This document shows, piece by piece, positions 2,969 through 49,085 of a DNA stretch of 64,000 nucleotides (its first letter is position 1; each line of letters begins with the position of its first letter). Source of the stretch: a virus; IMG/VR virus record IMGVR_UViG_3300025466_000012, positions 135,684 to 199,683 of that record; one strand, given 5' to 3'. Both the position numbers and the translations under genes were made by a program. The notes below the pieces were generated by a model. It made no database searches, was not told the origin of the DNA, and saw only the letters and a program-made list of their open reading frames with translations.

Positions 2969-3187
2969 TTGGCCAAAGAAGAAGCGATAAAAATGGAAGG
3001 TGTGATAGAAGAAATTCTACCCAACACTACCTACAGGGTCAAGATCGCCAATTTTGAAAAACCTGTGCTGGCCAGTCTCAACGGTCGCATGCGTCAACAC
3101 AACATCAAGGTCCTGGCCGGAGATACGGTGGAACTGGAATTCAGCCCGTATGATCTCACCAGAGGCCGCATCACCAGGCGCAGATAA
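2969..3187 (+). CDS. infA: Translation initiation factor IF-1
   Basis: 72 aa; [49 protein letters not shown]; TTG start. Confidence 0.95.
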
Positions 3188-3195: not shown

Positions 3196-3738
3196 ATGCG
3201 TAACATAATCGATCTTGTAGAAGCCACTACCAAACCAGCCAAGCTGGAAACCACACCCTTGCCCTACACCCATAAGGCCCTGGAGCCGGTCATGAGTGCA
3301 GAAACAATTGAATATCACTACGAGCACTTGGCCAAGGGCTATGCCAAACGATACAACGCCGGTGAAGGCGATCCTGACTTCAATCGAGCTGGCAGTTTCT
3401 TGCACAATAAATTTTTCCCACAACTGCGTGAGCCCCGAGGCGCCAACAGACCCCGAGGCGCAGTACTGGCCCTGATTGAAGAAAAATTCAAAACCTACGA
3501 AGACTTTAAAGCGGAAATGAAAAAGTCTTTTATGTCTATCCAGGGAAGCGGATGGATTTATCTGAGTACTAGCGGAGAAATTAAAGTTATACACAATCAT
3601 GCTGTAAGGACCGATATTGCATTGTTGATCGATGCTTGGGAACATGCATGGTCGCTTCAATACCAATGGGACAAAGAGAAATACCTAGATAATATTTGGA
3701 AGATAATCAACTGGGACGTATGTAACGAACGACTATGA
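3196..3738 (+). CDS. sodB: Fe/Mn superoxide dismutase
   Basis: [31 protein letters not shown] and DAWEHAW; four metal ligands present; Fe versus Mn specificity uncertain. Confidence 0.9.
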
Positions 3739-31073: not shown

Positions 31074-31102
31074 GGTACATAATCAAACAATCACGGAACA
31101 AC

Positions 31103-33361
31103 ATGCAAAACAATCCTGAAATAGAACAACTGATCGAACAAGCAGTAGAACTGGCACAAGAATTCAAACACGAATATGTGCTGACCGAACATGTGTTGTT
31201 GGCTCTGATCAGGCACAAGCCATTCCGCCAGACTCTGGAAAAATTTGGAGTGGATATCGACATGTTTGATCAAGAACTCATGGCCTATCTGGCCGGTTTG
31301 GTCAACTTGGTCACCAGCAGTGATCAGGCACCCAAGAAGACCAACGGTCTTGAACGCTGTTTCAATCGCGCTTTGACCCAGGTGTTGTTCACAGGACGCC
31401 GCAGCGTGACCACGGTAGATCTTTACTTGGCCATGATGGCCGAGACCAACAGCCACTCACACTATTTCTTGCTCAAGTACGGAGTCAAGAAAAACGAATT
31501 TGTTGAATTTTGGCAAACCAATTACAGTCAGGAACCGGTCACATTTACGGACAAGCAGGCCGACGAAATATTGAACGAACACTGTACCAATCTCAGTGCA
31601 TTGTCTGCAGAAGGCCGCCTGGAACCCATGATCGGTCGTGCGGAAGAACTCAAAGACATGATCACAGTGCTGGCCAGAAAGTTCAAGGCCAATGTGCTCA
31701 TGATAGGTGATCCTGGTGTGGGCAAGACCGCCATCATAGAAGGACTGGCACAAGAAATACAGGCCAAACGTGTGCCCGAATTCCTTCAAGATCACGAAGT
31801 GTACAGCCTGGAAATTGGCAGTCTTTTGGCCGGCAGCAAGTATCGCGGTGAGTTTGAAGAAAAATTCAAGAACGTGATAGCGGCTCTAGAAAGCAAAAAA
31901 CGCTGTGTGTTGTTTATAGATGAAGCTCATACCATGAAAGGTGCCGGCAGCTCCAGCAACAGTACCTTGGACTTTGCCAACATGCTAAAACCGGCTATAA
32001 CCAAAGGTAATATCAAGGTTGTGGCCTGTACCACCTGGGAAGAATATTATGAAAGTTTTGAAAAAGATCGAGCTCTCATGCGTAGATTCCACAAGGTCAC
32101 AGTGGACGAACCTGACGCCGAAACCACAGAGAAAATCCTGATCGGGATCAGTTCCAGACTGGAGCAGTTCCACAATGTGGAAATCGAATCCGAGGCCATC
32201 AAGTCGGCCGTGGACCTGGGCAACAGATACATACATGACAGAAAAAATCCCGACAAGAGCATCGACCTGCTAGATGGTGCCTGCGCCCGCGAGCGAGTAA
32301 AGGATCAAGGTCTAGTCTCTATTACCACCGACATGATCATGGCACAACTGAGCCGTGTCACTGATGTGCCAGTGGACCGACTACAGAACGAACGCAGTGT
32401 CAAGATCCGGGATCTGGAAAGCAACGTCAAGCAACACATTTACGGACAAGATACTGCTGTGGATGCTGTGCTGGAACGAGTGTATATCAGCTTCAGCGGA
32501 TTGGGCAATGGCAAACGACCCATGGCCAGTTTCCTGTTCTTGGGCCCAACTGGTACCGGCAAAACTGAACTGGCCAAACTGTTGGCAACCAATCTGGACA
32601 TGAAACTGCTCAAGTATGACATGAGCGAATATCAGGAAAAACACACAGTGTCCAGCCTGATTGGCGCTCCTCCGGGCTATGTGGGCTTTGAGGATGGCAA
32701 CGTGGGCGGTGGCAAGCTGATCAGTGATCTCAGCAAGAATCCATTCAGCATCATACTGTTTGACGAAATCGAAAAGGCACACCCAGACGTGATCAACATC
32801 ATGTTGCAGATGCTGGACGAGGCCCGTATCACCAGCTCCAATGGCAAAACAGTCAATCTCAAAAACACCATCATAATCATGACCAGCAATCTGGGTGCTG
32901 CTGACAACGAGCGCAACACCATTGGCTTCAGCGACAGCCTGGAACGGTCGGGCGAGGAAGATCGTGCCATGAAAGACTTTTTCAAGCCCGAACTACGCAA
33001 CAGGATCGATCGTGTGTGCAAATTTGTCAAGCTGGATACCTTGGCTGTGAAAAAAATCGTGGTCAAGTTCCTGGATGAACTACAGACCAGTCTGACCGAA
33101 CGCGGCATCAGACTCACAGTAAGTGAACCCGTGATCGACATGCTGGCCGAAAAAGGTTATGACAAAAAGATGGGCGCCAGACCGCTGGGACGCAAGATCG
33201 ACGAATTGATCCGTGTGCCCTTGAGCCGACGTATCTTGTTTGATGGCCTTGAAAACTGCAATTTACAGGCTGTGATGGATGGCGATCAAATACAATTTGT
33301 ACTGGCAGACAGCGTGCAGGCCACAGTAGATCAAGACGGAATTATCAAGATTGGCAACTGA
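31103..33361 (+). CDS. clpA: ATP-dependent Clp protease ATP-binding subunit ClpA
   Basis: Two AAA+ modules (GDPGVGKT and GPTGTGKT), no coiled-coil M domain, ClpP-docking IGF loop. Confidence 0.92.
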   Translation: MQNNPEIEQLIEQAVELAQEFKHEYVLTEHVLLALIRHKPFRQTLEKFGVDIDMFDQELMAYLAGLVNLVTSSDQAPKKTNGLERCFNRALTQVLFTGRRSVTTVDLYLAMMAETNSHSHYFLLKYGVKKNEFVEFWQTNYSQEPVTFTDKQADEILNEHCTNLSALSAEGRLEPMIGRAEELKDMITVLARKFKANVLMIGDPGVGKTAIIEGLAQEIQAKRVPEFLQDHEVYSLEIGSLLAGSKYRGEFEEKFKNVIAALESKKRCVLFIDEAHTMKGAGSSSNSTLDFANMLKPAITKGNIKVVACTTWEEYYESFEKDRALMRRFHKVTVDEPDAETTEKILIGISSRLEQFHNVEIESEAIKSAVDLGNRYIHDRKNPDKSIDLLDGACARERVKDQGLVSITTDMIMAQLSRVTDVPVDRLQNERSVKIRDLESNVKQHIYGQDTAVDAVLERVYISFSGLGNGKRPMASFLFLGPTGTGKTELAKLLATNLDMKLLKYDMSEYQEKHTVSSLIGAPPGYVGFEDGNVGGGKLISDLSKNPFSIILFDEIEKAHPDVINIMLQMLDEARITSSNGKTVNLKNTIIIMTSNLGAADNERNTIGFSDSLERSGEEDRAMKDFFKPELRNRIDRVCKFVKLDTLAVKKIVVKFLDELQTSLTERGIRLTVSEPVIDMLAEKGYDKKMGARPLGRKIDELIRVPLSRRILFDGLENCNLQAVMDGDQIQFVLADSVQATVDQDGIIKIGN

Positions 33362-34838: not shown

Positions 34839-36146
34839 ATGAATTATCTAGTAATATATCCCGGCCGTTTCCATCCGTTCCATCTAGGACACAAGGCCAG
34901 TTACGACTGGCTGGTCAACAAGTATGGTCCTGAAAGTGTTTACATAGCCACCAGTGACAAACAGGCTCCTATAACCAGTCCGTTCAGCTATCCAGACAAG
35001 GTAGCAATGATGACCAAGCTGGGTGTACCAGCCAGTCACATAGTCAAAGTTCAAAATCCTTATCGAGCCACCGAAATAACCAACAGTCTTACGCCTGAAC
35101 AACAGGCCAGCACTGTGCTGATCTTTGCGGTCAGTGCCAAAGATGCCGAACGGTTTGATTTCAAACCCAAACGGGATGGCAGTCCCAGCTACCTACAGCC
35201 CTTGCCCGACAGCAAGACTCGTCTCAAACCCATGAGTAAACATGCCTATGTGCAAATAACCCCCACTGTGAATTTTCAAGTGCGTGGTCAGGATGCCAAC
35301 AGTGCCACGGCCATACGCAAGATGTTTATAGATGGCAACGACGATGACCGAGATCAAATCATACACGATTTATATGGCACTGCCGACACCAGTCTGCGAG
35401 ACATGTTCAAACAGCGACTGGGTGCGACCGATCGAGTAATAAAAATGATGCAGGAATGTCGTAAGATAGGAACTGATCGAAGCCGTACCTTGATGGAACG
35501 TATCATGCAACACGAACGTCGGGCACTGAATGAATTCGCACCCGCCGAACCACGAGACGATGACAACTACGAAGAGCCAGAATATCCAACGTCTTTGAAG
35601 AACAAAAATGGTCAGCATGTGGGCGACACCATGAAATTAACCAACGGTTCCTGGGCCTGGCAGTATTGGAAATTGGATCAGAATCCACATGGCCCATTCT
35701 ACAGCTTTGACATACTTGGTCATGATTTTGCAACTGAAAAAGAAGCCTACGCCAGTTTACAAGCATATCATGCCACCCACACTGCTCGACAATTACGAGA
35801 ATTTGCTCCTGCTGAACCACAAGACGGTGACGGTGATGTTCCGCCAAATGTCTACGAATTGGCCAATCGTTGGTGGAATAACACAGATGATCAAGACCGA
35901 ATTGCCATGGTGTTGCGTAGCATGGGCTGGGACATACAGCAGGCCGACGGCGAGGAAGATGTTTGTCAGCTGACCTATCGCGACGGCACAGTGTATTATC
36001 TCAACGACAGCGAGTTTGATCCCGAGTTATACGAAAACGCTGACTACATAGAAGAAAAATGGAGCGCCAAATACAAACGCAGCATCAATTGCGCCCATCC
36101 TCGAGGATTCAGTCAACGGGCTCACTGCGCCGGTCGTAAAAAATAA
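34839..36146 (+). CDS. HIGH-superfamily (cytidylyltransferase-like) nucleotidyltransferase with appended modules
   Basis: YPGRFHPFHLGH, NPY; modules beginning LNEFAPAEP and LREFAPAEP; final IEEKWSAKYKRSINC..PRGFSQRAHC. Confidence 0.75.
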   Translation: MNYLVIYPGRFHPFHLGHKASYDWLVNKYGPESVYIATSDKQAPITSPFSYPDKVAMMTKLGVPASHIVKVQNPYRATEITNSLTPEQQASTVLIFAVSAKDAERFDFKPKRDGSPSYLQPLPDSKTRLKPMSKHAYVQITPTVNFQVRGQDANSATAIRKMFIDGNDDDRDQIIHDLYGTADTSLRDMFKQRLGATDRVIKMMQECRKIGTDRSRTLMERIMQHERRALNEFAPAEPRDDDNYEEPEYPTSLKNKNGQHVGDTMKLTNGSWAWQYWKLDQNPHGPFYSFDILGHDFATEKEAYASLQAYHATHTARQLREFAPAEPQDGDGDVPPNVYELANRWWNNTDDQDRIAMVLRSMGWDIQQADGEEDVCQLTYRDGTVYYLNDSEFDPELYENADYIEEKWSAKYKRSINCAHPRGFSQRAHCAGRKK

Positions 36147-36166
36147 CAGCCTCGTGTAAACTAGTG

Positions 36167-36172
36167 TAAATA
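36167..36172 (+). promoter_or_regulatory. T4-late-like promoter motif
   Basis: Intergenic TAAATA upstream of 36200. Confidence 0.55.
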
Positions 36173-36199
36173 TTCGCGCTAACTTTATAAGAGGAAAAC

Positions 36200-37111
36200 A
36201 TGGCTGATCAAGACGCAGTACCTACAACACAAACCCCACAAGTCGGAGATGTAACCGAGCAACCAGCGCAGAACTTGCAACCTGGACAGAATCAGATACA
36301 GGTCAACATTGACTATCTACGTACCACCCGTGTGCATATCATGATGCCCTGCTATGGCGGCATGTTGACTGAAAGCACATTCATGAGCTACATCAAATGG
36401 TCAAACACCTGTCGGCAGTTGGGCATCGACTGGACCATGGAAACCATGACCAACGAGAGCTTGATCAGTCGCGCAAGAAATACTCTTACAGCCAAGTTCC
36501 TGAACAACAAGGAATCAACTCACTTGATGTTTATCGACGCTGATATCGGTTGGGAACCTTGGCATCTATTGGTCATGCTGGATCGTCAAGTGGACGTGAT
36601 CGGTGGCCTGTACCCTATGAAAAGCCTGCCGGTCAAATGGTGTGTAAACGGATTTGACGGTGCCGAAGAAGGACCAAACGGCCTTCAAGAAGTTACCAAA
36701 ACCGGTACTGGCTTCATGTTGATCAAGCGTGACGTATTTGCCAAGATGGACGCACATCCAGCGGTCAGACCGTTCATGAACGACATTGGCTTGCCAGCCG
36801 AACTGAATCCGTACATGAAGACCTATTTTGACACAGCGGTGCGTGAAAATCGTTACTACAGCGAAGACTGGACCTTCTGTGAAAATTGGAGAGACTTGGG
36901 CGGTAAAGTGTGGGTAGACAAGCGTGTGTTGCTCAAGCATACAGGAACCTATGTGTTTGATTATGCAGCTCAGGATCAGTTGTACAAAGATCTGCACACG
37001 TTGGCTGTACAAAATGGCGTAGCAGCTCCAGTTGATACTGGACCAGCTGTGGCACCAGCACCAGCTGAAGCCACTGTGCTTGCTTCCAGCAAAAAAACCA
37101 AGAAAAAATAA
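36200..37111 (+). CDS. GT-A fold glycosyltransferase-like protein
   Basis: MPCYGG, LISRARN, MFIDADI (DxD), GTGFMLIKR, SEDWTFC. Confidence 0.75.
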   Translation: MADQDAVPTTQTPQVGDVTEQPAQNLQPGQNQIQVNIDYLRTTRVHIMMPCYGGMLTESTFMSYIKWSNTCRQLGIDWTMETMTNESLISRARNTLTAKFLNNKESTHLMFIDADIGWEPWHLLVMLDRQVDVIGGLYPMKSLPVKWCVNGFDGAEEGPNGLQEVTKTGTGFMLIKRDVFAKMDAHPAVRPFMNDIGLPAELNPYMKTYFDTAVRENRYYSEDWTFCENWRDLGGKVWVDKRVLLKHTGTYVFDYAAQDQLYKDLHTLAVQNGVAAPVDTGPAVAPAPAEATVLASSKKTKKK

Positions 37112-37129
37112 CTGCATGGGTTTTGACAC

Positions 37130-37158
37130 AAAGCCGCTTTCTCAGCGGCTTTTTGTTT
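37130..37158 (+). terminator. Rho-independent terminator
   Basis: AAAGCCGCT-ttctc-AGCGGCTTT hairpin followed by TTGTTT. Confidence 0.85.
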
Positions 37159-37163
37159 GGCGG

Positions 37164-37169
37164 TAAATA
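37164..37169 (+). promoter_or_regulatory. T4-late-like promoter motif
   Basis: TAAATA 4 nt before ATG 37174, just after the terminator. Confidence 0.65.
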
Positions 37170-37173
37170 CTGT

Positions 37174-40100
37174 ATGAATATTCTCGAGCTTGATGCCTAT
37201 AACCTTGACGATGCAGTCAAATTCCATAATCGTTTGAATCCACGCCTGTGGACCAAGGATGAACATCTCCAACCCCAAGTGCGTGAACGTCTGTTGGAAA
37301 TAGCCGACGATTTTAGACAGTTCCTGGGCGTGAAGGATCTGGCTGTACAAGACATCACCATCAGCGGCTCCAACGCAGCCTACACTTATACTCCCAATAG
37401 CGATATTGATTTGCATTTGGTAGTTGACATGCCCGACGACGAAGTGTATCGAGAACTGTTTGCAGCCAAAAAATATCAATACAACGACGAGCATGACATC
37501 AAGATCGGCGGTGCCGATGTGGAACTGTATGTACAGGACAGTACAGAACCACACATCAGCCAAGGTTTATACAGTGTGCGTGACAACCAATGGTTGCGGG
37601 TGCCCAAACGAGTCAAGAGCGTGATGGACGACAGCAGTACCCGACACAAGTTCGAGTCCGTGGGTCGAGCCATTGAACGTGCTGTCAAAAGCGGTGACCC
37701 AGCCAAGATGACTCGCTTGATCAACAAAATCAAGCGCATGCGACAGACCGGTCTGGAAAATCACGGCGAGTTCGGACCTGAAAATCTCACGTTCAAACTG
37801 TTGAGAAATCAGGGCTTGATCAAGCAGTTGTACACAGCTCGAACAGCTGCGCATGATCAAGAATTCAGTCTGACCGAACAGGAACCTCGTAAACCATTTG
37901 TGTATGGATTCCGACAGGTCAGAGAAGCCAGTAGTCCGGATGGTGTCAGCCCCGAAACCAAGATGTTCCTCAGCGAAGAACCACCCATGGACGATGAAAG
38001 TGTGCTCAAAGACTTTGTGGAATTTTGTGTTCGCGAATTGAAAATTGACAGCTTGCCTGTCATCAAACTGCGTCGAGATCCGCAATGGCCAGTCATGCAT
38101 AAAACATTTGGTCGCTACATCAACGATCGAGATCTACTGGAAGTGGCCTGGGGCCAACGCCATCTCATGGATGTGTTGCGCACTGTGGCACACGAACTCA
38201 CACACCGACATCAGCACGAGCGAGATGGTGCCAAGATGGACCACACAGCTGGTGAGACCGGAAGTCCGTGGGAAAACGAAGCCAATGCCCGTGCCGGCAT
38301 ACTCATGCGCGACTATGGTCGACTGCATCCGGAATTGTTTGACGCTGGGACAGCTGAGAATCTAAAAGAAGCAACTGGTTACATACCCACTGCGGCCGAA
38401 AAGAATGATCCCAGATTCAAGATGGCTCTCAGCGTCGATGTACGTCCAGGAGCCTTGGGCCAAGCAGCCAATGCCTTCATGTTAAACACCGACAGCCAAG
38501 GTCATCCGCAGGAATTGAGACCCGACGGCCTGGTTGATCGCATGCAGGAACAATTGAACCAGTTCAAACAAACCGGAGTCTTGAGTGAAACAGTGGAGCT
38601 GGACGAAGTCAAAATGAGTCCAACTTCGTTGCGACAATTTGCCGACAGCCCTGCGGCCGAAGGCATACGTGCCGGCTTTGAGGCTGAGTTGATATTCGCA
38701 GGCCTGGGCGAGCCCGACTATGGCGAAACCGAGCCTGATTATGACATGGATGAACGTGCCTACAGCATACAACAGGTCTTGGATTTTTTCAGCAACGACG
38801 AATGGGGCTACGGCCTGAGTGATCGGCAGCGTGACCGGCTGGAAGAACAACTGGACGAAATGTACATAGAATGGCGAGACGAACAGATACGCCAAGATTT
38901 TCAGCACGACGGCGAGGACCTGATCACCGAGTTATGGTTAGAAGACCGACCCATGATTGAACGTATCCATGATGCCTTGACAGATGGCCTGGGCTTGTCC
39001 GACGATGAAGCCGACGCTGTGATAAAATTACACTCTAGAAGAGAACGTGGTGAGATCAAAGGATCAGAAATGAGCGAGGCTGAATTGGAAATGGCCGCTC
39101 AATACAGTGAAGCCCGTGGCATAGCCGACGACGTGCTGGAAGAGGATGTACAAGGCAGCATAGACAACCAAGACAGCATTTACGATCAAGCCTTAGACAA
39201 TTACCGCCTCAACTACTCAGGCAATGACGACAGTTTTTTCAGTGACGTGGGCTTGCGCTACATGAGCGACATCGAAAACCAATTTAGACTGGACTGGCCT
39301 TACATGACCACTACAGGTGGTGACAACGAAGGCGGCTACAGTGAAAGCAGTGCCCAGGCGCTGGCCGACAGTTTGAAATCGGACCTGGGGGTCAAGATCA
39401 AAGTGTCAGGTGGTTATCACAGTACCACCAGAGATGAACATTCGTGGATCTTTGAACCCGACTCAAGTTTGACTGCCGATGACAGCGACGACATGCCGGT
39501 AGAGATAGTGAGTCCGCCCATGCCGTTAAAAGAGTGTTTGAAAAAAATGGAAGAGTTTTTTGCCTGGGCCAAATCACACGATGCCTATGCCAACAGCTCA
39601 ACCGGATTCCACATGGGTGTGAGCCTGCCCACTCAGTTCAACGATGATGTGGATTTTGTCAAACTGATCCTGTTCCTGGGTGACAAGTATGTGTTGGAAC
39701 AGTTTGGTCGCGACAGTGTCAACTACTGTGCCAGTGCCATGAAAAAATTAAAAAACAGGATCGGCAACGATCGAGGCACAGCCATAGCAGATGCCATGAC
39801 GTTGATGAAAAAGAATCTGTTGGAACTGGCACACAGGAGCTTGGCCAGCAATCAGGGATTTGGCAAATATACCAGCATCAATCCCAAGGACAAATACATT
39901 GAGTTTAGATCAGCCGGTGGTGAAGACTACTTTCAAGATATCGACAAGTTAAAAAATACCCTGTTGCGTTATGCCCGAGCCATGAGCATAGCCGGCAATC
40001 CAGCTGCGGACCGCAATGAATACTATAAAAAATTATACAAACTGATCAGTCCTGACACACAAGATCCAACTCTGTCCTTGTTTGCACGCTACAGTGCCGG

Positions 40101-40863
40101 CGAACTCAGTGCAGAACAACTGAAACGGGACTGGGCTGAATTGGCCTTGGCAAAAGAACGTCCCAAGAAAGGACCGTATGATGATACTGAATGGGAAGCC
40201 GTTGACCCTGATACCGGAGAGGTATTGGCCACCACACGAGATTTCAGCATAACCAATGCTACCAATTATTTCCGCCAAGATTTAAAGTTGGCTCGTTTCC
40301 AAGTACGCGAGAAGGAACCTGACCTGGTCAGTCCCCGTGCCAAATTGGCCAAGCGTATCAAACAACCTAAGCCACAAGCCAAAGATGATCAACAAGATGC
40401 AGAACAACTACAGGCCCGTATAGATCCCGAGTCAGCACAGATTCCAAGAAACTGGGAGTTTTATAGTGCAGACAGCGGCACTGTAATTGATCGTGTAGAT
40501 GGAATCAATCTGATGCAGGCCAATGCAGTCAGAGCCGATGTAGTACGTAGATATCGACTGCCAGACGAGAGTGTGCGTATGCGTAGCGTGCCCACTGCTC
40601 AGTCAGCTGAACGAGCTAGAGCTAGAGTACAGGATATTGAACCCGACGTAGCACAAAACTTTGATCGACCCGAGGGAATTCAATCAACTGTGGCGGGTGT
40701 TCCGGCCTGGTACATATACAACACCCGCAATGATGCCATAGTAAGAACATTCTTCCAACCCACACGTGACGCAGCCGAAGTCTATGCCAGTGGGTGGTTA
40801 AGAAACAACGGTGTTCAAGATACCACCGGGTATCAAGTAAGACCGGCAATGGAGACACCGTGA
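37174..40863 (+). CDS. Polyvalent protein: Pol-beta-type nucleotidyltransferase + HExxH metallopeptidase + amidoligase (COOH-NH2 ligase type 2) + unknown C-terminus
   Basis: SGSN...SDIDLH...DVELY; VAHELTH...ENEANARAG; GFEAEL, VEIVSPP, STGFHMGVS, KYTSIN, IEFRSAGG. Confidence 0.85.
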   Translation: MNILELDAYNLDDAVKFHNRLNPRLWTKDEHLQPQVRERLLEIADDFRQFLGVKDLAVQDITISGSNAAYTYTPNSDIDLHLVVDMPDDEVYRELFAAKKYQYNDEHDIKIGGADVELYVQDSTEPHISQGLYSVRDNQWLRVPKRVKSVMDDSSTRHKFESVGRAIERAVKSGDPAKMTRLINKIKRMRQTGLENHGEFGPENLTFKLLRNQGLIKQLYTARTAAHDQEFSLTEQEPRKPFVYGFRQVREASSPDGVSPETKMFLSEEPPMDDESVLKDFVEFCVRELKIDSLPVIKLRRDPQWPVMHKTFGRYINDRDLLEVAWGQRHLMDVLRTVAHELTHRHQHERDGAKMDHTAGETGSPWENEANARAGILMRDYGRLHPELFDAGTAENLKEATGYIPTAAEKNDPRFKMALSVDVRPGALGQAANAFMLNTDSQGHPQELRPDGLVDRMQEQLNQFKQTGVLSETVELDEVKMSPTSLRQFADSPAAEGIRAGFEAELIFAGLGEPDYGETEPDYDMDERAYSIQQVLDFFSNDEWGYGLSDRQRDRLEEQLDEMYIEWRDEQIRQDFQHDGEDLITELWLEDRPMIERIHDALTDGLGLSDDEADAVIKLHSRRERGEIKGSEMSEAELEMAAQYSEARGIADDVLEEDVQGSIDNQDSIYDQALDNYRLNYSGNDDSFFSDVGLRYMSDIENQFRLDWPYMTTTGGDNEGGYSESSAQALADSLKSDLGVKIKVSGGYHSTTRDEHSWIFEPDSSLTADDSDDMPVEIVSPPMPLKECLKKMEEFFAWAKSHDAYANSSTGFHMGVSLPTQFNDDVDFVKLILFLGDKYVLEQFGRDSVNYCASAMKKLKNRIGNDRGTAIADAMTLMKKNLLELAHRSLASNQGFGKYTSINPKDKYIEFRSAGGEDYFQDIDKLKNTLLRYARAMSIAGNPAADRNEYYKKLYKLISPDTQDPTLSLFARYSAGELSAEQLKRDWAELALAKERPKKGPYDDTEWEAVDPDTGEVLATTRDFSITNATNYFRQDLKLARFQVREKEPDLVSPRAKLAKRIKQPKPQAKDDQQDAEQLQARIDPESAQIPRNWEFYSADSGTVIDRVDGINLMQANAVRADVVRRYRLPDESVRMRSVPTAQSAERARARVQDIEPDVAQNFDRPEGIQSTVAGVPAWYIYNTRNDAIVRTFFQPTRDAAEVYASGWLRNNGVQDTTGYQVRPAMETP

Positions 40864-41390
40864 GAGCAGAAGAATTCGTCACCGAAGCCCAACGTTGGCC
40901 CGACATTGAATCGGCCAAACGAGCATTTGTCAGCAATCCCAGATTCCAACATTTGCCCGTGAGTACAAGACAGGCCATGGCGGCCAGTGCTTATCAAAAA
41001 CAACGTGCGCCCACAAAAGATCTGTCTGCAAAATTAAAACAACCTGCAACACCGCATTGGCAGGATCTTGATGAATCCTACTATCGAGTGCCTGGCAACA
41101 TATTCCCCGATGGCGATCTGTATCTGACCTCGCATGCTCTTCATACCAGATTTCCTGAAAGAAATATACCAATAGATCGAGTGATCGATCTGTGCCAACA
41201 GGCCGGTGAACAATTTCCCAACAAACTTGAAAATTTAGGAGATGCCAGTCTGGTGATCCAGGCACCTGATCAGTTTGGTGTAGCCTTGCTCAAACAGGAA
41301 ATGTCCGATGGCACTTGTCGATACCTGGTCAAGACAGCACACGATCGGTTGAAATGCAGTCAAGAACAAACAGTGATAAGGGTAAGGTGA
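40860..41390 (+). CDS. Two-module protein with MRAEEFVTE leader; C-terminal module BECR/DUF4258 RNase-like
   Basis: GTG start after GGAG; LTSHALHTRFPERNI after a DLDE linker; RNase call tentative. Confidence 0.65.
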   Translation: MRAEEFVTEAQRWPDIESAKRAFVSNPRFQHLPVSTRQAMAASAYQKQRAPTKDLSAKLKQPATPHWQDLDESYYRVPGNIFPDGDLYLTSHALHTRFPERNIPIDRVIDLCQQAGEQFPNKLENLGDASLVIQAPDQFGVALLKQEMSDGTCRYLVKTAHDRLKCSQEQTVIRVR

Positions 41391-41803
41391 TGCGAGCAAG
41401 CGAATTTGTCACAGAAAACAAAGACACAGCCATGATGGGCAAGATTGAAGCCACGGGCAAAATAGTTCGCATACTGCAAAAAGCTCACTCGGTGAAATTC
41501 AGTGATCAAAAAGATTGGTTGCTGATCGACACCGATCCAGCCAAGGGCAGTAGGGGCCAAGGACTCAAATGGATACCGGCCAGCACAAGATTTGAATGGG
41601 TACGTCCGTACATGGCCGACATTGAAGAAAACTTTGCCGATGGCAAGAAAAAAGGTCGTAGTCGCCCAGGACGTGTGAAACGTGCCGGTGCCAGTTGCTC
41701 AGGATCGGTCACTGATTTACGTGCTCGGGCCCGACGAGCATCGGGCGAGCGTGCCAAGATGTATCATTGGTGTGCCAATATGAAATCGGGCAAGAAAAAA
41801 TGA
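41390..41803 (+). CDS. Two-module basic protein with MRASEFVTE leader
   Basis: Second module after DIEE: NFADGKKKGRSRPGRVKRAGASC...YHWCANMKSGKKK. Confidence 0.7.
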   Translation: MRASEFVTENKDTAMMGKIEATGKIVRILQKAHSVKFSDQKDWLLIDTDPAKGSRGQGLKWIPASTRFEWVRPYMADIEENFADGKKKGRSRPGRVKRAGASCSGSVTDLRARARRASGERAKMYHWCANMKSGKKK

Positions 41804-42372
41804 TATTGGTATACATACACGGCGCATCGGCCACCAGCGAAAGTTTCAATTACATTCGAGATCGTGTTGGTGGTCGCGACATGATGATCAACTATGACAG
41901 CCGCAATGGATTTGAAAACAATCTGCAGGCCATCCGCAATCAGATAGGTCATACACGTGACATATTCTTTGTGGCACATAGCCTGGGTGGCATATATGCT
42001 CTACATCTTGCAAATGCCATACCCGAGCAAGTGCTGGGTGCCGTGACCTTGAGCACACCCTATGGTGGTGCAGAAGTGGCAGATTTTGCCAAGTTTTTCC
42101 TACCTTTCAGCAGACTCATGCGCGACATAGGACCCACGTCGTGGGCCATGCGACAGGCAGACAAGATCAAGATACAGCATCCGTGGTGCAATGTGGTCAC
42201 ACTTCAGGGACAAAGTCCTTTTATGGCCGAAGCCAACGACGGCGTGGTCACTATCAACAGCATGCGAAAGCATCCGGACATGGAACTGATCGATGTGCAA
42301 CTGAATCATTACGAAGTGGTTCTCAGTGACCAAGTGGTCGACATAATCAAGCAACGAACAAACATTTTATAG
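41800..42372 (+). CDS. Alpha/beta hydrolase
   Basis: YIHGASA, AHSLGG nucleophile elbow, STPYGG, NDGVVT, NHYEV. Confidence 0.85.
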   Translation: MILVYIHGASATSESFNYIRDRVGGRDMMINYDSRNGFENNLQAIRNQIGHTRDIFFVAHSLGGIYALHLANAIPEQVLGAVTLSTPYGGAEVADFAKFFLPFSRLMRDIGPTSWAMRQADKIKIQHPWCNVVTLQGQSPFMAEANDGVVTINSMRKHPDMELIDVQLNHYEVVLSDQVVDIIKQRTNIL

Positions 42373-42381
42373 GACATGGTC

Positions 42382-42735
42382 ATGCGAGCTCAAGAATTCG
42401 TCCCAGAAGCTGTGAACCAGGCGATCATGCGCACTGACTGGGAGCAACTCAAACATCAGAATGGATACGACCTGATCGCACAGGGTCACAATAGTGGCAT
42501 CAGTGTGTATGCGTTTGATGCCAATGACCGAAACATCGGATGGGCACACTTTGAAGTCAAAGGTGATCATCTAGAAAGTTATGACAGCTATGTGAGTCCC
42601 GAACTGCGCAGACAGGGTATAGCCACGCTCATGTACAACTATGCCCAAGAGCTGGGCAACGACATCCGGGCCAGTACACATCAGACCCGGGCTGGTAAAC
42701 GTTTCTGGCGCGACCGGCAACAGACCAGCAGCTGA
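42382..42735 (+). CDS. GNAT acetyltransferase with MRAQEFVPE leader
   Basis: YVSPELRRQGIATLMY (motif A) and QTRAGKRFW. Confidence 0.8.
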   Translation: MRAQEFVPEAVNQAIMRTDWEQLKHQNGYDLIAQGHNSGISVYAFDANDRNIGWAHFEVKGDHLESYDSYVSPELRRQGIATLMYNYAQELGNDIRASTHQTRAGKRFWRDRQQTSS

Positions 42736-42761
42736 GTGATTTCTGATACTGTGTTCATGAC

Positions 42762-42767
42762 TAAATA
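42762..42767 (+). promoter_or_regulatory. T4-late-like promoter motif inside a hairpin loop
   Basis: TAAATA 4 nt before ATG 42772. Confidence 0.6.
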
Positions 42768-42771
42768 CAGC

Positions 42772-43068
42772 ATGACACGACATTTTGTTAGATTATTGGC
42801 AGATGTACATTGCGATTGGTCTGGATCGAGTCCGATCTATCGAGCCTATGTGAACAACGAATTGTTTGCCGAACGCAAATGGATCTGGCATGACAGCTAT
42901 CTGGAAGAAATGTTCCAGATTGACGCCGAACCCGGAGACTACCACATACGTTATGAACTGGTGCCCCCACATTTGGCCAGTCTACGAGTACAAAACATAC
43001 GTGTGGATCATGGTCCAGCACACCTGATTGACAGCAACACCATAAGGATAACAGATGCGATTGCATGA
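42772..43068 (+). CDS. Hypothetical beta-rich protein
   Basis: ATG follows the late motif; no SD. Confidence 0.7.
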   Translation: MTRHFVRLLADVHCDWSGSSPIYRAYVNNELFAERKWIWHDSYLEEMFQIDAEPGDYHIRYELVPPHLASLRVQNIRVDHGPAHLIDSNTIRITDAIA

Positions 43069-43261
43069 ATTTGTAAATCTACACGAAGACGGCGGCACAG
43101 TGAGCGGCGCCATAGCACCTGTGGTTCAGCCCTTGGGAGGTACCATTTCCAGATCTGGCGGCAGTTTCTTTAGTGGCACTAAATACTCTAACGACGCCAC
43201 GCCCAACACACCGGACTGGATGAAACAGTATAAACAAGGAAAGACCAAACGTGCTCGCTGA
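43055..43261 (+). CDS. Small protein with MRLHEFVNLHE leader
   Basis: 68 aa, G/S-rich after LHE. Confidence 0.65.
   Translation: MRLHEFVNLHEDGGTVSGAIAPVVQPLGGTISRSGGSFFSGTKYSNDATPNTPDWMKQYKQGKTKRAR
43180..43185 (+). promoter_or_regulatory. T4-late-like promoter motif upstream of dps
   Basis: TAAATA inside the preceding ORF. Confidence 0.4.
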
Positions 43262-43691
43262 TTTGTTAAAGACCCTGCTAGGAACACAATTTGCTTATTA
43301 CTTAAAGTCTCATTCGTTCCATTGGAACGTTGAAACTCCCGATTTCTATCAGTACCATAAATTTTTCCAAAAGATCTACGAAGATGCTTATGAAGCAGTG
43401 GATCCCATAGCCGAATATATTAGAAGTTTAGATGAATATGCGCCGGGTAGTCTTGAGCGCATGTTAGAATTAAGCGTAGTACCTGGACAGACCAAAGTAC
43501 CACGTGCCCAACTCATGATCGAAGAATTGTTGGCCGACAGCGAAACCATAGTTGATTTGTTGAATCAATGTTTTACCGCTGCTACCAATGAAAACAAACA
43601 AGACATAGCAAACTTTATGGCCGAACGTCTCAGCCAACAAAACAAGTTTGCATGGCAACTTCGTAGCACATTGAAAGAGAACCGGGCATGA
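43251..43691 (+). CDS. dps: Dps DNA-binding ferritin-like protein
   Basis: HSFHWNVETPDFYQYHKFFQKIYE, DPIAEYIRSL, final WQLRS. Confidence 0.9.
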   Translation: MLADLLKTLLGTQFAYYLKSHSFHWNVETPDFYQYHKFFQKIYEDAYEAVDPIAEYIRSLDEYAPGSLERMLELSVVPGQTKVPRAQLMIEELLADSETIVDLLNQCFTAATNENKQDIANFMAERLSQQNKFAWQLRSTLKENRA

Positions 43692-43692
43692 T

Positions 43693-44244
43693 ATGGCAAA
43701 CAATGACATATACAGCATAGTACAGCGATTGGCTGTACTGGAAGGCCGTATCACTCCGGTCGCCGCTCGTCATGGACTCAACCCGCAACAAAAAAGCGTG
43801 CCACAGATGCCGGCCTTGTTTCGCCCTCGCACACAGAAAATCTTGGGCGGAGATCCTGACGCCAAAAACCCCATGAGCGGATATGCCGTGGGCGGGTGCG
43901 AAGAAAGTGCCATGCAGGAAGAAATACTGGGCAAGAAGTCCTTGCGCGACTATCTACAGACCGTGCAGGCGCACAAGGACAACGAGATATTGGCCAAACG
44001 ACCAAATGCACATGGATTGGAAACCCGAGTAGTGACCATAGAAATGGCCGATGGCAGGACCTGTGAGATACACGGCAACGATCAGGACGGTTATGAAGTA
44101 CGTCACGCCGGACGCAGCTTGCCTACCAAATTTCCTCACATGGATCATGCCAGAATGGCTGTGGACATGTACAATCATAGATCGGCCACAGCCAGCAAAC
44201 AGACTGAGCAACACAGTGATGCTGATTACATAGAAGAGAAATAA
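43693..44244 (+). CDS. Hypothetical protein
   Basis: 183-aa ORF within the late cluster; VLE, QEE and IEE motifs. Confidence 0.7.
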   Translation: MANNDIYSIVQRLAVLEGRITPVAARHGLNPQQKSVPQMPALFRPRTQKILGGDPDAKNPMSGYAVGGCEESAMQEEILGKKSLRDYLQTVQAHKDNEILAKRPNAHGLETRVVTIEMADGRTCEIHGNDQDGYEVRHAGRSLPTKFPHMDHARMAVDMYNHRSATASKQTEQHSDADYIEEK

Positions 44245-44248
44245 TGAT

Positions 44249-46372
44249 ATGAACCTATTTGATTTTTTTGAGGACCGCAATAAAAAACCATCAGCAACCA
44301 CAGAAGGCAAACGACCATGGGGTCGCGAGGCCTTGGTCAAACGATTGGATCAATTGAAAAAACAGGATCAGGAAAACAATCGAGGACTCAGCGGCTTGGA
44401 CTTTGAGCGTCACCAACGCGAGCTTGAAGCGATGGCACAACGCCTAGATCCCAACCGATCCAAGCCGGACCTGGATGAATATCAGACCAACGAGCCCAGA
44501 CGCAGCAACTTCATGAGTGGCGCACCTGCCGCAGTAGATCCTGAACAACGTTGGAAACGACAGGTACGCGGTATAGCACAGGCCTACATGGGTCGCCAAC
44601 GACAGCTGGCTCAGTTGGCACAGAGCAAGGGACGAGACAGTATCTATCAGGTGGCATGGGATTATCTGCGCCATCCAGGCCAAGGCATCAGATACCCCGA
44701 AGGTGGCGGAGTCAATGCCGTGGATGTGGACTGGAATGATGTGGTAGCTGGCATACCAACCAGCCCCACTGTGGGTGGTCTGGATTTGCTGAAAGCTGCG
44801 CACAAGGAACTGGTCAGGATGGGCTATGGCAATACACCGGAAACGGCTCAGTTGCTCAAGGATGTGCTGAACATGAGTCCCAAGATGCATCAAGAGATAC
44901 AACAGGCCTACGATAGAAAAGTCAACGCCAGCAAGGAGTTGGCGGAGGAACTTGCTCCAATTGCAGGAACCTGGATTGCAAAATATTGGGATAAACAACC
45001 TGAAAATACCCCAGCCGAACAAATATTCCGTTCCGAAGATGAAGCACGGAAATTCTTAAACAAACTGCCAACTCATTATGTAAAAGCATTGCGACCAGCA
45101 AGAGCCGCAGGACATTTAAAAGACCAAGGTGTGGCGGAAGGCTTCTTAAATGAAGCCAACAGTCTAAAAGGCACTATAGACAGCATCGTGGTGCATGGTG
45201 AGGCTATCGCACAGATATATGAACAGATGAAGTCGGCCGCTAAGAAATATGTGGATAATCACGGCGAGCTGGAAGGATTCAGCATGGTTGCCGCTGGTAT
45301 CGGATCACGCTGGTTCCAGTCATTCTATTTCAACAAACTACAGAACGAACTCTATGCCCTGGTCAAACAGGCACCTAAATACTCTCCACTCCTGCTGGAT
45401 TTCCTCAAGTCGGAAGATTCCAAGTCATTCGGTAGAGTAGCAAAAGGTCTCCCGGGTATCCTGGAACAGATAGGATCAGAACTGGGCAGCCAGGAACTGA
45501 TGCGTTTCGGAAAACATTGGGCCCAGCGCCGTAGCGATTACCAGGCATATCTCAGCGGTCTCGAAGACGATGATGACTACGATGATGGTCCTCAAGAAAA
45601 GAAACCTAAGGATACGACACAGGGTCAACAAAATGCACAGGCGGCGGTGTTGATCAATCAAGGGATTAAAGATCATATACCTGCCAAATATCAAGGCAAA
45701 GTTAGGAATATGATCGATCGTTTACCTATGGAAAAAAGGATTATAGCACTTCAACAGGCCATAGAAAAATTCAAGGGTATGAATGAAAGTAAGCAAGGTG
45801 TGGTGGAAGGTCATAAAACTATCAAAGGACCACATGGTCGATTGGATGTGGACACAACCACATCAGGTGTGACCCGTGTGCAACAGAAAGATCGCACAGG
45901 TGCCAAACGATTCGGATTACCTTTCAAAACAGGTGGTCACGTGGGCCGAGACACCCAGCAGTCCGCTCCGGGTGCCAGTTCTTTGCTGAATACGACAAAT
46001 GGAGTCCGTAGAGCAACGCCTAGATTGGATCATAGCGATGATCTGCGAGAAGAACAGGACGTCGAGGGTGTGGAACGTGCGATCCTGCACAGGATCATGG
46101 TTGGTCATAAAGATTTGTTGTTGAAGTATGGACCGCAAAAGGTCATGCAAGCAGCAGAAGAAGTGGCCTATAATACCGGTGACATCAGTGAGATTGGCAC
46201 CAGCGATGTGTCCGGCTGGGTACAACAGGTTGAACAGATACTAGGTGCGGTAAGTGAAGCCAAGGCAGTAAAAACCAGACTGGATCCTGCTTGCTGGACT
46301 GGTAAAAAAATTGGCAACCCCAAAACCAAGGTCAAGAATGGTGTCAGAGTCAATAACTGCGTACCAAAATGA
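44249..46372 (+). CDS. Large multi-module protein with Glu-ending linkers
   Basis: MNLFDFFED leader; QGVAEG, QGVVEG, FLNEA, DLREE, VSEA linkers; C-terminal CWTG...KNGVRVNNCVPK module. Confidence 0.75.
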   Translation: MNLFDFFEDRNKKPSATTEGKRPWGREALVKRLDQLKKQDQENNRGLSGLDFERHQRELEAMAQRLDPNRSKPDLDEYQTNEPRRSNFMSGAPAAVDPEQRWKRQVRGIAQAYMGRQRQLAQLAQSKGRDSIYQVAWDYLRHPGQGIRYPEGGGVNAVDVDWNDVVAGIPTSPTVGGLDLLKAAHKELVRMGYGNTPETAQLLKDVLNMSPKMHQEIQQAYDRKVNASKELAEELAPIAGTWIAKYWDKQPENTPAEQIFRSEDEARKFLNKLPTHYVKALRPARAAGHLKDQGVAEGFLNEANSLKGTIDSIVVHGEAIAQIYEQMKSAAKKYVDNHGELEGFSMVAAGIGSRWFQSFYFNKLQNELYALVKQAPKYSPLLLDFLKSEDSKSFGRVAKGLPGILEQIGSELGSQELMRFGKHWAQRRSDYQAYLSGLEDDDDYDDGPQEKKPKDTTQGQQNAQAAVLINQGIKDHIPAKYQGKVRNMIDRLPMEKRIIALQQAIEKFKGMNESKQGVVEGHKTIKGPHGRLDVDTTTSGVTRVQQKDRTGAKRFGLPFKTGGHVGRDTQQSAPGASSLLNTTNGVRRATPRLDHSDDLREEQDVEGVERAILHRIMVGHKDLLLKYGPQKVMQAAEEVAYNTGDISEIGTSDVSGWVQQVEQILGAVSEAKAVKTRLDPACWTGKKIGNPKTKVKNGVRVNNCVPK

Positions 46373-47007
46373 AACTGAGCGATTTCCAAATCAGCAATCA
46401 TGACAAGCTAGACTCGATACTGGTTAGGTTATGCGAACTGGTCATGGACGGTCAAAAGAAAAATCCAGATCGTTACGGCATGGTAGCAGCCGCGGTACTA
46501 GATCCTGACAACAACTGTGTGGCCGCTTTGAATTATCAAACAGCTGATGGTGATGTGCATGGTGAACGTGCCGCCATAGATGCTTATCACGAACGCTTTG
46601 GTGAGATACCCGAAGGCAGTATCATCTTGACTACCTGTAGTCCGTGTACCGAGCCCATGTCAGACCGCTATGGTTCTAGTTGCAAAGATCTAATCAGCTC
46701 GACCGCGGTGCACAAGGTCTATGCTGGTTATAGAGATCCCAGCCAACAGACGCATGGCGGTGACAAGACTTATCATTTGGAAATCACTCGTAACAAAAAG
46801 ATACAACAACTGTGCCAGGCCTTTGCTGACACCTGGTTACGAAACGAACTGACCGAACTTGAATTCTTGGGCAGCCCTTGCACTAAAGACTGTTCGGGTC
46901 ACAGAGCCGGTTATGCCTGGAGCCAAAGCCGAGGTGGGCGTGTGGCACAGAGTCCATTCAGCCCCAGCTTCAACAAAGGCAGCCAATTGCAGGTGGATGG
47001 CAAATGA
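46369..47007 (+). CDS. Zn-dependent nucleotide deaminase with appended Cys-rich module
   Basis: VAAAVLD, HGE, TTCSPC...C, KVYAG; C-terminal LTELEFLGSPCTKDCSGHRAGY. Confidence 0.75.
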   Translation: MKLSDFQISNHDKLDSILVRLCELVMDGQKKNPDRYGMVAAAVLDPDNNCVAALNYQTADGDVHGERAAIDAYHERFGEIPEGSIILTTCSPCTEPMSDRYGSSCKDLISSTAVHKVYAGYRDPSQQTHGGDKTYHLEITRNKKIQQLCQAFADTWLRNELTELEFLGSPCTKDCSGHRAGYAWSQSRGGRVAQSPFSPSFNKGSQLQVDGK

Positions 47008-47093
47008 TCGACTATCCTTATCCGGTATACCCTGACCCTGATCCAGCATGTCCTGAGCAGGATCGTCTGAGACTTCCTTATGCACCTGTATAG
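47004..47093 (+). CDS. 29-aa Pro/Tyr-rich peptide (not in ORF track)
   Basis: ATGA-coupled to the deaminase stop; MIDYPYPVYPDPDPACPEQDRLRLPYAPV. Confidence 0.5.
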   Translation: MIDYPYPVYPDPDPACPEQDRLRLPYAPV

Positions 47094-47174: not shown

Positions 47175-47203
47175 TTGACTGTGTGTGTTGTATCGTGTAT
47201 AAT
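47175..47203 (+). promoter_or_regulatory. sigma70-type promoter heading the replication/modification gene run
   Basis: TTGACT (47175-47180), 17 nt, TATAAT (47198-47203). Confidence 0.8.
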
Positions 47204-47227
47204 TACATATTCAACCAGGAGAGCTCA

Positions 47228-47488
47228 ATGACAAGTCGTGTGTTTACCACAGAACAAACTGCCAAACTAAACCAAATCATCAACGAAGGCATGCAGGTCA
47301 CGCATGAAATCGAAACTTTGACCGAAGGTCTCAATGACACAGTCAAGGCCATAGCCGAAGAGCTGGAAATCAAACCAGCCATTCTCAAACGTGCTATCAA
47401 ACTGGCACACAAGGCCGAGTTTGGCCGCGCACAGCAGGATCATGAAGTGCTGGAACAGATCTTGACCACGGTGGGCAAAACTCTCTAA
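47228..47488 (+). CDS. Small dsDNA-binding protein, T4 DsbA-like
   Basis: 86-aa helical protein, KAIAEELEIKPAILKRAIKLAHK; SD AGGAG. Confidence 0.6.
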   Translation: MTSRVFTTEQTAKLNQIINEGMQVTHEIETLTEGLNDTVKAIAEELEIKPAILKRAIKLAHKAEFGRAQQDHEVLEQILTTVGKTL

Positions 47489-48135: not shown

Positions 48136-49084
48136 CATAGATCCTTACCTGGATCAAATCTGGCAAAAAAGCCAGTGCAGAAAACATGAATGGGCGATTT
48201 TGGGTACCCTCGAAAATCTCGTGAACACTCTTCCTGATAAAAGCAACACATATATCTGTTTGGTTGATGCAGTGCCCGAAAATGTTATTGTAAACTATCG
48301 TACCATAATCACTGATAATATCTTGAAGACCGATTCGGTACAACTATGGCCAGAATTTTGGGGCACTTTCAGCTACGATCCAGAATATTCGGATCGTGCT
48401 CCACAAAAACTATTCAACTGTTTTATGCACCGGACCGGAGTCATGCGACAGACATGGTTCTACGAACTGATCCGACGAGAATTGTTGGATCTAGGATCAG
48501 TTTCATTCTTGTTAGATTATAGAGACAATGCTGGTTATACCAAAGGCTGGAGCACTGTAGAAGAAAAACAGGCTCTGTTCCAATGGATATTTGAAAAACT
48601 TGATGCAGAATTTCTGGCCGAGCACGAAAGCATACGATCGTTGGTACCTTATCGTAATTTCCACACTGATCTTGACCAGGCCGTCGTAGATTCAAAAATA
48701 AGCCTGGTACTAGAGACCTATTACGACAACTCGATGGCCATTGCATTCAGTGAAAAGGTATTTAGGGCTTTACAATTGCCTCGTCCTATGTTACTATATA
48801 GTGGTGTTGGTGCCATCAACGAGTTACGGAAAATAGGATTTGATCTTTACGATGACATAGTGGATCATGGCTACGACCTAATTGTGGACTCCAATCAAAG
48901 ACAATTAGACATTTTATCCAGGCTAGAAAATTTTAAAAGTTTTAATTACACAGACAACACTCTTCGAGATTTTGAACAACGAGCTAACAAAAACAGAAAC
49001 ATCTTGAAAAATTTAAAACAAAATTGGCCTCATAAGCTCGACAAAATTGTTGCCAGCCTCAGAGATCACAACAACGGAGAATAG
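48104..49084 (+). CDS. AT-rich glycosyltransferase-like protein (GT10/GT-B-like)
   Basis: ISLVLET, FSEKVFRAL..PRP, GFDLYDDIVDHGYD pattern; tentative. Confidence 0.55.
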   Translation: MYQSRSKLICNIDPYLDQIWQKSQCRKHEWAILGTLENLVNTLPDKSNTYICLVDAVPENVIVNYRTIITDNILKTDSVQLWPEFWGTFSYDPEYSDRAPQKLFNCFMHRTGVMRQTWFYELIRRELLDLGSVSFLLDYRDNAGYTKGWSTVEEKQALFQWIFEKLDAEFLAEHESIRSLVPYRNFHTDLDQAVVDSKISLVLETYYDNSMAIAFSEKVFRALQLPRPMLLYSGVGAINELRKIGFDLYDDIVDHGYDLIVDSNQRQLDILSRLENFKSFNYTDNTLRDFEQRANKNRNILKNLKQNWPHKLDKIVASLRDHNNGE

Positions 49085-49085
49085 A

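Follow-up and report, generated by a model that had tools for sequence, protein, structure and literature searches.

Known capsid-targeting systems and the present locus

In bacteriophage T4, the first ten residues of internal protein IPIII suffice for it to be incorporated in the head; residues 4 and 7 of this tag serve targeting and residues 8 and 10 processing, and T-even relatives carry further basic proteins with similar tags (review of T4 work, PMC9026906; also PMC3012670 and PMC5694885). In phiKZ-like phages and SPN3US, several head-internal ejection proteins are cut after Glu by a gp21-like protease, and prohead targeting is presumed to be the role of their propeptides (PMC5694885). 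Here we compare with these systems a gene cluster at positions 34839-47007 of an IMG/VR viral sequence, in which four neighbouring genes open with forms of one nonapeptide, M-R-A-x-E-F-[VI]-x-E. Judging from its sequence and by analogy with T4, we think it rather likely that this leader is a capsid-targeting propeptide, a variant of the T4 capsid-targeting sequence, and the locus probably encodes head-packaged cargo. The whole stretch of 64,000 nucleotides (nt) that we analysed, referred to as the window, comprises bases 135,684-199,683 of a 199,683-bp linear record with a CheckV completeness of 58%. Positions are those of the window unless they are called genome positions, and in motifs an arrow follows the Glu of a cleavage-type site.

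The T4 record contains the N-termini MKTYQEFIAE↓A (ipII and ipIII), MKTFKEFTST...ITE↓A (ipI), MAKINELLRE↓S (gp24), MELITELFDE↓D (alt), MLKEQLIAE↓A (gp22) and ...FLTE↓AEIGG (gp23). As with IPI, IPII and IPIII (and Alt and gp24), the leader of this phage is a short N-terminal putative propeptide common to unrelated, mostly small and basic proteins, with an E-F-[IV]-x-E core that ends in an aliphatic-x-Glu protease motif; the genes lie in variable loci, and relatives have a gp21-family protease and a head module in T4 order. The Glu-Phe pair, the targeting Phe, the aliphatic residue at -3 and the Glu at -1 are all kept, with E-F-[VI]-x-E in the leader and E-F-I-A-E in T4. The two systems differ in that the leader has nine residues and starts M-R-A, whereas the T4 tag has ten and starts M-K-T-Y, and in that the leader's putative cargo comprises at least 20 families, far more than in T4, with enzymes (GNAT acetyltransferase, GH19 lysozyme) among them. 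In addition, the cleavage-like junction of this clade also occurs before modules fused inside larger proteins. The propeptides of phiKZ-like phages and SPN3US, in contrast, mostly exceed 100 residues and carry the motif (S/A/G)-x-E, whereas the present tag is T4-like in being short and uniform, a nonapeptide. An initial annotation of this DNA had proposed an undescribed system; what we propose instead is an extension of the known principle of the T4 capsid-targeting sequence and internal proteins.

A conserved leader at the start of unrelated genes

The initial annotation had pointed to a common motif at the start of four neighbouring open reading frames (ORFs), and a six-frame scan confirmed it at all four. 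They begin (M)RAEEFVTEA, MRASEFVTEN, MRAQEFVPEA and MRLHEFVNLHED, in the order given here (aa, amino acids; pI, isoelectric point):

40860..41390, + strand: leader gene 1, 176 aa, GTG start, (M)RAEEFVTE↓A, followed by an orphan body
41390..41803, + strand: leader gene 2, 137 aa, MRASEFVTE↓N, with a C-terminal basic two-Cys NFADG module from 41630 after ..DIEE↓
42382..42735, + strand: leader gene 3, GNAT acetyltransferase, 117 aa, MRAQEFVPE↓A (Pfam Acetyltransf_1, E 1e-6)
43055..43261, + strand: leader gene 4, 68 aa, pI 9.9, beginning MRLHEFVNLHE↓D

Two of these four genes are thus of unassigned function, one bears a basic Cys module and one encodes a GNAT enzyme. Across the 199,683-bp record (six frames, ORFs of at least 40 codons), M-R-x-x-E-F-[VIL] occurs at five start codons, compared to a mean of 0.2 in codon-shuffled genomes; the fifth site, MRAREFIIEE, lies at genome position 38839. 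The leader codons vary synonymously between sites (CGA/AGA, GAA/GAG, TTC/TTT) and the DNA upstream of the leader genes is unrelated from one site to the next, and selection therefore acts on the peptide. Conservation is confined to the protein level and stops exactly at Glu9.

These codon data bear on the idea that translation is what the first codons are conserved for, whether they form a downstream box or a context for re-initiation in tightly coupled genes. Leader genes do often overlap the preceding stop as GTGA or ATGA, and the GTG start of leader gene 1 overlaps the stop of the upstream 1229-aa ORF as GTGA. However, Arg is encoded by CGA or AGA, the Glu, Phe and Val codons vary, the leader is also found on genes with long untranslated spacers, and coupled neighbours in the cluster (the Dps-like protein and the hydrolase) do without it, which makes a translational role very improbable.

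We scanned a degenerate DNA pattern for M-R-A-x-E-F-V-x-E through the IMG/VR viral contigs and obtained at least 115 loci, nearly all at genuine ORF starts. Among the matches listed, 103 of 114 leader loci have neighbours homologous to this phage or to its relative G001 (349 kb, 97% complete, with a DNA polymerase 79% identical to the window's); the remaining 11 are chance matches within long ORFs, roughly the number expected. Scanning the whole genome and its relatives was a check that the initial annotation had proposed, and it gave the five sites in the record, two to four strict leader genes in each of five relatives (G001-G005; none in reversed-pattern controls) and about 100 leader-carrying contigs in IMG/VR, from one jumbo-phage clade.

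When clustered by the body that follows residue 11, the leader proteins fall into 38 clusters, of which at least 20 have a clear leader and are families unrelated to one another. The largest family has 97 members of about 125 aa; in it, identity is 76% in the leader versus 30% in the body, M1 and E9 are invariant, and conservation ends at E9. Eight GNAT orthologues, at 28-37% identity, have all kept the leader, and the other members of the 43055 family bear the canonical form MRAxEF[IVL]xE. The mature leader proteins have a median length of 126 aa and a median pI of 8.7, compared to a background of 6.0, although a quarter of them are acidic. Together, these sequence comparisons support a real, portable, clade-wide N-terminal tag that follows the logic of the T4 capsid-targeting sequence.

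Database searches said little about the bodies. Neither the 125-aa leader family nor the NFADG module protein had a tblastn match in 50,697 phage records, Pfam and PHROG searches with the leader proteins other than GNAT and with most modules yielded only the match of the DACY module to DUF5872, which is sub-threshold, and an ESM Atlas look-up returned viral "hypothetical protein" clusters only. The body of leader gene 1 had no Pfam or PHROG match and no homologue among the fetched loci.

Clade and head machinery

The window encodes a family-B DNA polymerase (49047-51746) with 43-50% identity to the enzymes of Sinorhizobium phage Phosso, Agrobacterium phage Atu_ph07, Vibrio phage 2.275.O and the 121Q/Rak2 group, which are jumbo members of the T4 superfamily, and megablast of the region against the 50,697 phage records gave zero matches at the DNA level. 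Much closer are G001, G002 (343 kb, 99% complete), G003 and G005, whose polymerases are 70-79% identical to the window's. By their sequences, the leader-bearing phages are an abundant uncultured jumbo-phage clade, kin to the Rak2/121Q/Atu_ph07 group and with a T4-type head. The clade is very common in metagenomes, because at least 600 IMG/VR stretches match its scaffold protein, the best 80 of them at about 80% identity.

The head module of G001 is arranged in T4 order: portal, a 72-aa protein, an acidic 286-aa protein, a Peptidase_S77 protease, a 363-aa scaffold and a gp23-like major capsid protein. The protease is of the gp21 prohead type in both G001 (E 2e-23) and G004 (E 1e-25), and G004 too has its head module in T4 order. 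In alignments of 54-79 relatives per protein, the major capsid protein keeps an invariant YLKE↓N at the expected end of its propeptide, and the core proteins of the clade start M-x-x-x-E-[FQ]-... with L-I-E or similar. A complex prediction for the G001 scaffold with a leader protein scored 0.00, a value that says nothing about binding in either direction.

On the model of the T4 internal proteins, the leader would dock a freshly synthesised protein to the prohead's scaffolding core; a gp21-type prohead protease would then cleave behind Glu9, the -3 position being aliphatic, and the mature protein would remain in the head alongside the DNA. The region 34839-47007 would be a late-transcribed, hyperplastic cargo locus, with a GNAT enzyme and small, mostly basic proteins as the products of its leader genes; in relatives, the same leader stands on more than 20 families, a GH19 lysozyme included. 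Targeting, cleavage, packaging and injection of the leader proteins are all inferred from the T4 precedent.

Exchangeable modules and cleavage-like junctions

Between and around the leader genes lie larger ORFs, several of which end in small basic modules:

34839..36146, + strand: cytidylyltransferase-like enzyme (Pfam CTP_transf_like, aa 1 to ~200), no N-terminal leader; L(N/R)EFAPAEP linkers then lead into two variable modules, and from 36039, after ..DYIEE↓, a KWS basic Cys module ends the protein
36200..37111, + strand: conserved 303-aa protein (phrog_1574), function unassigned; a strong terminator follows 3' at 37130-37152
37174..40863, + strand: 1229-aa multidomain protein (NTP_transf_2, HExxH region, Amidoligase_2), no leader
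41800..42372, + strand: alpha/beta hydrolase (Pfam Abhydrolase_6, E 5e-7), no leader; its ATG overlaps the preceding stop
42772..43068, + strand: conserved 98-aa protein, function unassigned, no leader; TAAATA at 42762
43251..43691, + strand: ferritin/Dps-like protein (Pfam Ferritin, E 2e-22), no leader; orthologues in relatives
43693..44244, + strand: 183-aa protein, function unassigned, C-terminus ..DADYIEEK, a junction motif and then the stop
44249..46372, + strand: 707-aa protein of modular build, its linkers being GVAE↓G (45128-45139) and GVVE↓G (45797-45808); C-terminal CW basic Cys module from 46259 after ..VSE↓
46369..47007, + strand: zinc deaminase (aa 20-120, Pfam dCMP_cyt_deam_1, E 1e-8), no convincing leader; C-terminal CxxDCSGHRAGY module from ~46858 after LTE↓

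The C-terminal modules are small and basic with two Cys residues, of the types KWS..YK.S.C, NFADGK.KG.SRPG, C..DCSGHRAGY and CW..(K/R)-rich..NCVP. In the fetched loci, every small module is preceded by a Glu with a hydrophobic residue at -3. This hydrophobic-x-Glu stands before the KWS module in 7/7 cases and before the NFADG module in 13/13 (seven independent upstream contexts), likewise just before the DACY, KWF and CW modules, and the junction of the deaminase-type module reads L-x-E↓L-[ST]-F in 10 of 11 contexts. Depending on the phage, one and the same module may come directly after a leader or be joined to a larger protein's end; NFADG, for instance, stands alone in relatives as leader plus module in proteins of 65-69 aa. 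The residue after the Glu is identical in the two settings, and cleavage there would therefore yield the same product. We accordingly propose that these hydrophobic-x-Glu junctions may be where the small basic two-Cys modules are cut free, both in leader-gene products and at the ends of larger proteins. The 183-aa ORF at 43693-44244 ends in the junction motif otherwise found ahead of KWS, which would fit loss of that module.

A locus of this kind could also arise without any function of the peptide: the shared start might be the footprint of cassette shuffling, in which small mobile genes recombine at a conserved 5' end and the internal junctions are vestiges of fusion. The hyperplasticity of the locus and the swapping of modules between orthologous proteins speak for this account, and internal junctions such as ..DYIEE↓KWS do resemble degraded leaders. 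We nevertheless judge it quite unlikely. The leader is conserved at the amino acid level with free synonymous change and without conservation of the flanking DNA, and its identity is still about 76% where that of the bodies has fallen to 30%. Moreover, junctions in seven unrelated contexts keep just -3 and -1, which points to selection on the site rather than to common descent.

A second, stricter type of boundary is the linker (Q/E)GVAE↓G, which we found in 33 non-homologous contexts overall, where it bounds exchangeable modules; we know of no T4 counterpart for its strict form, QGVAE↓G. Two copies lie in the 707-aa ORF (the second as GVVE↓G) and four in a 988-aa ORF that follows the large terminase gene. 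What lies between the two linkers in the 707-aa ORF is also found at another locus, L063, there ending in ..QGVAE and a stop, and the next module recurs at L025, with EGVAE↓G after it where the window has ..AVSE↓A. The cytidylyltransferase-like proteins of the window and G001 agree in enzyme domain and KWS tail but differ in middle modules and linkers, the middle modules of the G001 orthologue being bounded by QGVAE↓G. The linkers of modular polyproteins such as the 707-aa ORF would probably be further cleavage sites, and processing at module junctions and GVAE linkers is plausible on these sequence comparisons. In the 988-aa ORF itself (genome 41591-44557; L118:8592-11558), the four GVAE↓G or GVAE↓D linkers are spaced about 200 nt apart and bound two identical 67-aa cassettes and further modules.

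The initial annotation had gone further, placing the domain boundaries of the long ORFs generally on hydrophobic-x-Glu motifs. Counts of [LIVMF]-x-E in the 435-, 1229- and 707-aa ORFs did not bear this out, as they were at chance compared to shuffled sequences (z = 0.3-1.1, the same as for the DNA polymerase), and because of this we rejected the reading of every hydrophobic-x-Glu as a boundary. The comparatively supported junctions are only six: E↓KWS at 36039, E↓NFADG at 41630, GVAE↓G at 45128, GVVE↓G at 45797, VSE↓A at 46259 and LTE↓L at 46858. For the proposed cleavable polyproteins, the long ORFs offer conserved linkers that bound exchangeable modules, as putative cleavage sites, and show no enrichment of generic cleavage motifs specific to domain boundaries.

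Enzymes of the cluster had been put forward as virion-packaged. The GNAT protein does bear the leader; the cytidylyltransferase-like enzyme, the nucleotidyltransferase/HExxH/amidoligase protein, the hydrolase, the Dps-like protein and the deaminase have none. Packaging of the large enzymes is unsupported, because the nucleotidyltransferases, the amidoligase and the deaminase lack the leader, and we treat it as speculative. The proposed cargo had also included a possible RNase, and we found no RNase-like domain in the cluster proteins. The HExxH region of the 1229-aa protein gave a weak Peptidase_M78-like match (E 0.01). The polyvalent proteins of phages and conjugative elements, reportedly described by Iyer, Aravind and colleagues in 2017, are said to combine nucleotidyltransferase, peptidase, amidoligase and similar domains, and they presumably enter along with the DNA and are split into their parts. 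The 1229-aa protein resembles them as a large multidomain protein with that combination, and differs in that no defining domain (such as MuF) was found in it and in that it has neither the leader nor a conserved linker.

Late-type signals and genomic placement

The transcription signals around the cluster are as follows:

34826, 36167, 37164 and 42762, + strand: TAAATA late-promoter-like boxes, 5-35 nt upstream of the genes at 34839, 36200, 37174 and 42772
47175..47203, + strand: the best sigma-70-like promoter of the region (11/12 matches), ahead of the DsbA-like and DNA polymerase genes

Late-type TAAATA motifs before several units had been part of the initial annotation, and we recovered them at these four genes. 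Boxes arranged in the same way stand before the tail-fibre gene (4118), before the 988-aa ORF that follows the terminase gene, and in G001 before the genes for the portal, core proteins and fibre. By its sequence, the promoter at 47175-47203 would mark the downstream end of the late cluster and the switch to replication genes, and the presence of TAAATA boxes, with a sigma-70-like promoter only after the cluster, fits late transcription of the locus. Together with the small gene that comes after it, which matches T4 DsbA weakly (E 0.0045), this near-consensus promoter spans 47175-47488 (+ strand).

Leader genes were found only in putatively late or structural regions, in this cluster and in head-completion/terminase surroundings. 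The leader gene at genome position 38839 lies between a gp4-like head-completion gene and the large terminase gene, and relatives have two tandem leader paralogues between their head-completion and terminase genes.

Placement also matters for a different account, in which the nonapeptide is a tag for another partner, such as a Clp-like AAA+ unfoldase or a host protease or chaperone, and governs the stability, folding or delivery of accessory proteins. N-terminal tags are a known way of addressing Clp substrates. A gene for a ClpA/ClpB-like AAA+ protein (31100-33361, + strand) lies just 5' of the cluster, a position kept in G001, and AlphaFold2 predicts the leader of the 125-aa family as a short helix, in a model whose confidence (predicted local distance difference test 73.5, predicted template modeling score 0.38) is too low for a fold search. 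However, the leader has no specific similarity to known Clp recognition motifs, and a Clp tag would leave unexplained why it ends in a T4 protease motif, why the same hydrophobic-x-Glu precedes internal modules and why two leader genes lie in the head-completion/terminase module. We therefore consider such a role unlikely.

Virion evidence from cyanophages and points that weigh against packaging

Some of the modules have homologues in T4-like cyanophages. The KWF module protein matches 134 T4-like cyanophage records, and PSSM2_123 of P-SSM2, its S-RIM50 counterpart and PSSM4_160 of P-SSM4 are chains of these module types with hydrophobic-x-Glu between them; PSSM2_123 adjoins gp15 and gp16. The corresponding cluster, T4-GC119, was listed with proteomic data by Sullivan et al. 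in 2010, where Table S8 gives it as a structural protein with 13 peptide counts from purified virions (PMC3037559). From the gene-length columns we deduce that the phage behind these counts is P-SSM4. The likeness to the window lies in the basic Cys modules (KWF-like, CW, DACY/DUF5872-like and SFxAR) with hydrophobic-x-Glu between them; the T4-GC119 gene stands beside terminase and neck genes, and its protein was detected in virions. It differs in having no MRAxEFVxE leader, in belonging to Kyanoviridae and in sharing only some module types with the window ORFs. By homology, the view that modules akin to those of the clade are virion proteins in a T4-like cyanophage is supported.

Several points count against the leader as a capsid-targeting propeptide and against packaging of the locus. 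The leader is one residue shorter than the T4 tag, and the nine-residue pattern was not found in Phosso, Atu_ph07, Vibrio phage 2.275.O, 121Q or T4, so that the cultured relatives lack the leader and no isolate vouches for it. The window's own record has no head module, and the protease is seen only in relatives; this fits a truncated contig, the record being 58% complete. Hydrophobic-x-Glu is a low-information motif whose overall count is at chance. The virion data concern distant module homologues (about 40% identity) from another phage family, and the phage of the "Y, 13" column was deduced from gene lengths and not from a header. Finally, the GVAE-linked polyproteins and the large enzymes have no canonical leader: either they use another route into the head or they are not packaged, and head entry of the GVAE-linked polyproteins, if any, needs another signal.

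If the leader is nonetheless combined with the linkers, a broader scheme suggests itself, which we regard as possible though doubtful. It is a two-part code in which the nonapeptide tag and the QGVAE↓G or hydrophobic-x-Glu cut sites load exchangeable enzymes and Cys modules as polyproteins, and the parts cut by the prohead protease are injected and act before phage gene expression. The enzymes so loaded would be the GNAT protein, a superoxide dismutase, the lysozyme and perhaps the deaminase and nucleotidyltransferases.

Should the tag work as in T4, it would give a sequence-only readout of head-carried, probably injected proteins in uncultured environmental jumbo phages, a cargo set that would include candidate host-takeover and anti-defence enzymes. 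The T4 capsid-targeting principle would then be old and general across distant T4-like lineages, and the QGVAE↓G linker and the basic Cys modules common to cyanophage virion proteins would be testable parts of a packaging and processing code. The nine-residue tag and the six-residue linker could also serve for loading foreign proteins into phage capsids.

Variant leaders on other proteins

Weaker versions of the leader had been noted at three further ORFs. The openings at 44249 (MNLFDFFED) and 46369 (MKLSDF) are present and have no clade-wide support; MKLSDF, which also lacks the Glu, was rejected as a leader. The third, which held up as a plausible variant, belongs to a gene upstream of the cluster:

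3196..3738, + strand: Fe/Mn superoxide dismutase whose N-terminus is extended by 19 residues that end DLVE↓A; outside the range of the cluster

In orthologues the length of this extension varies and its end, [LI]-[VL]-E↓A, is always kept; a TAAATA box lies 11 nt upstream of the gene. It is plausible from these sequences that the extension is a variant leader, making the dismutase a candidate packaged enzyme. Directly 5' of it, and in the same position in relatives, is a 72-aa ORF (2969-3187, + strand) that, compared by eye with E. coli translation initiation factor IF-1, looks like that factor.

Among the relatives, a protein at L100:4158-4946 (+ strand) runs from the leader through a stretch rich in Lys and Arg and another rich in Gly and Tyr to a GH19 (chitinase class I-like) lysozyme domain, and its domains make it a possible virion-borne cell-wall hydrolase. 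Several relatives have a variant leader, MRY(R/Q)EILE↓A, before a CW module, and in one protein with this variant (L122:1711-2274, - strand) a peptidoglycan-binding domain and a KWF module come after it.

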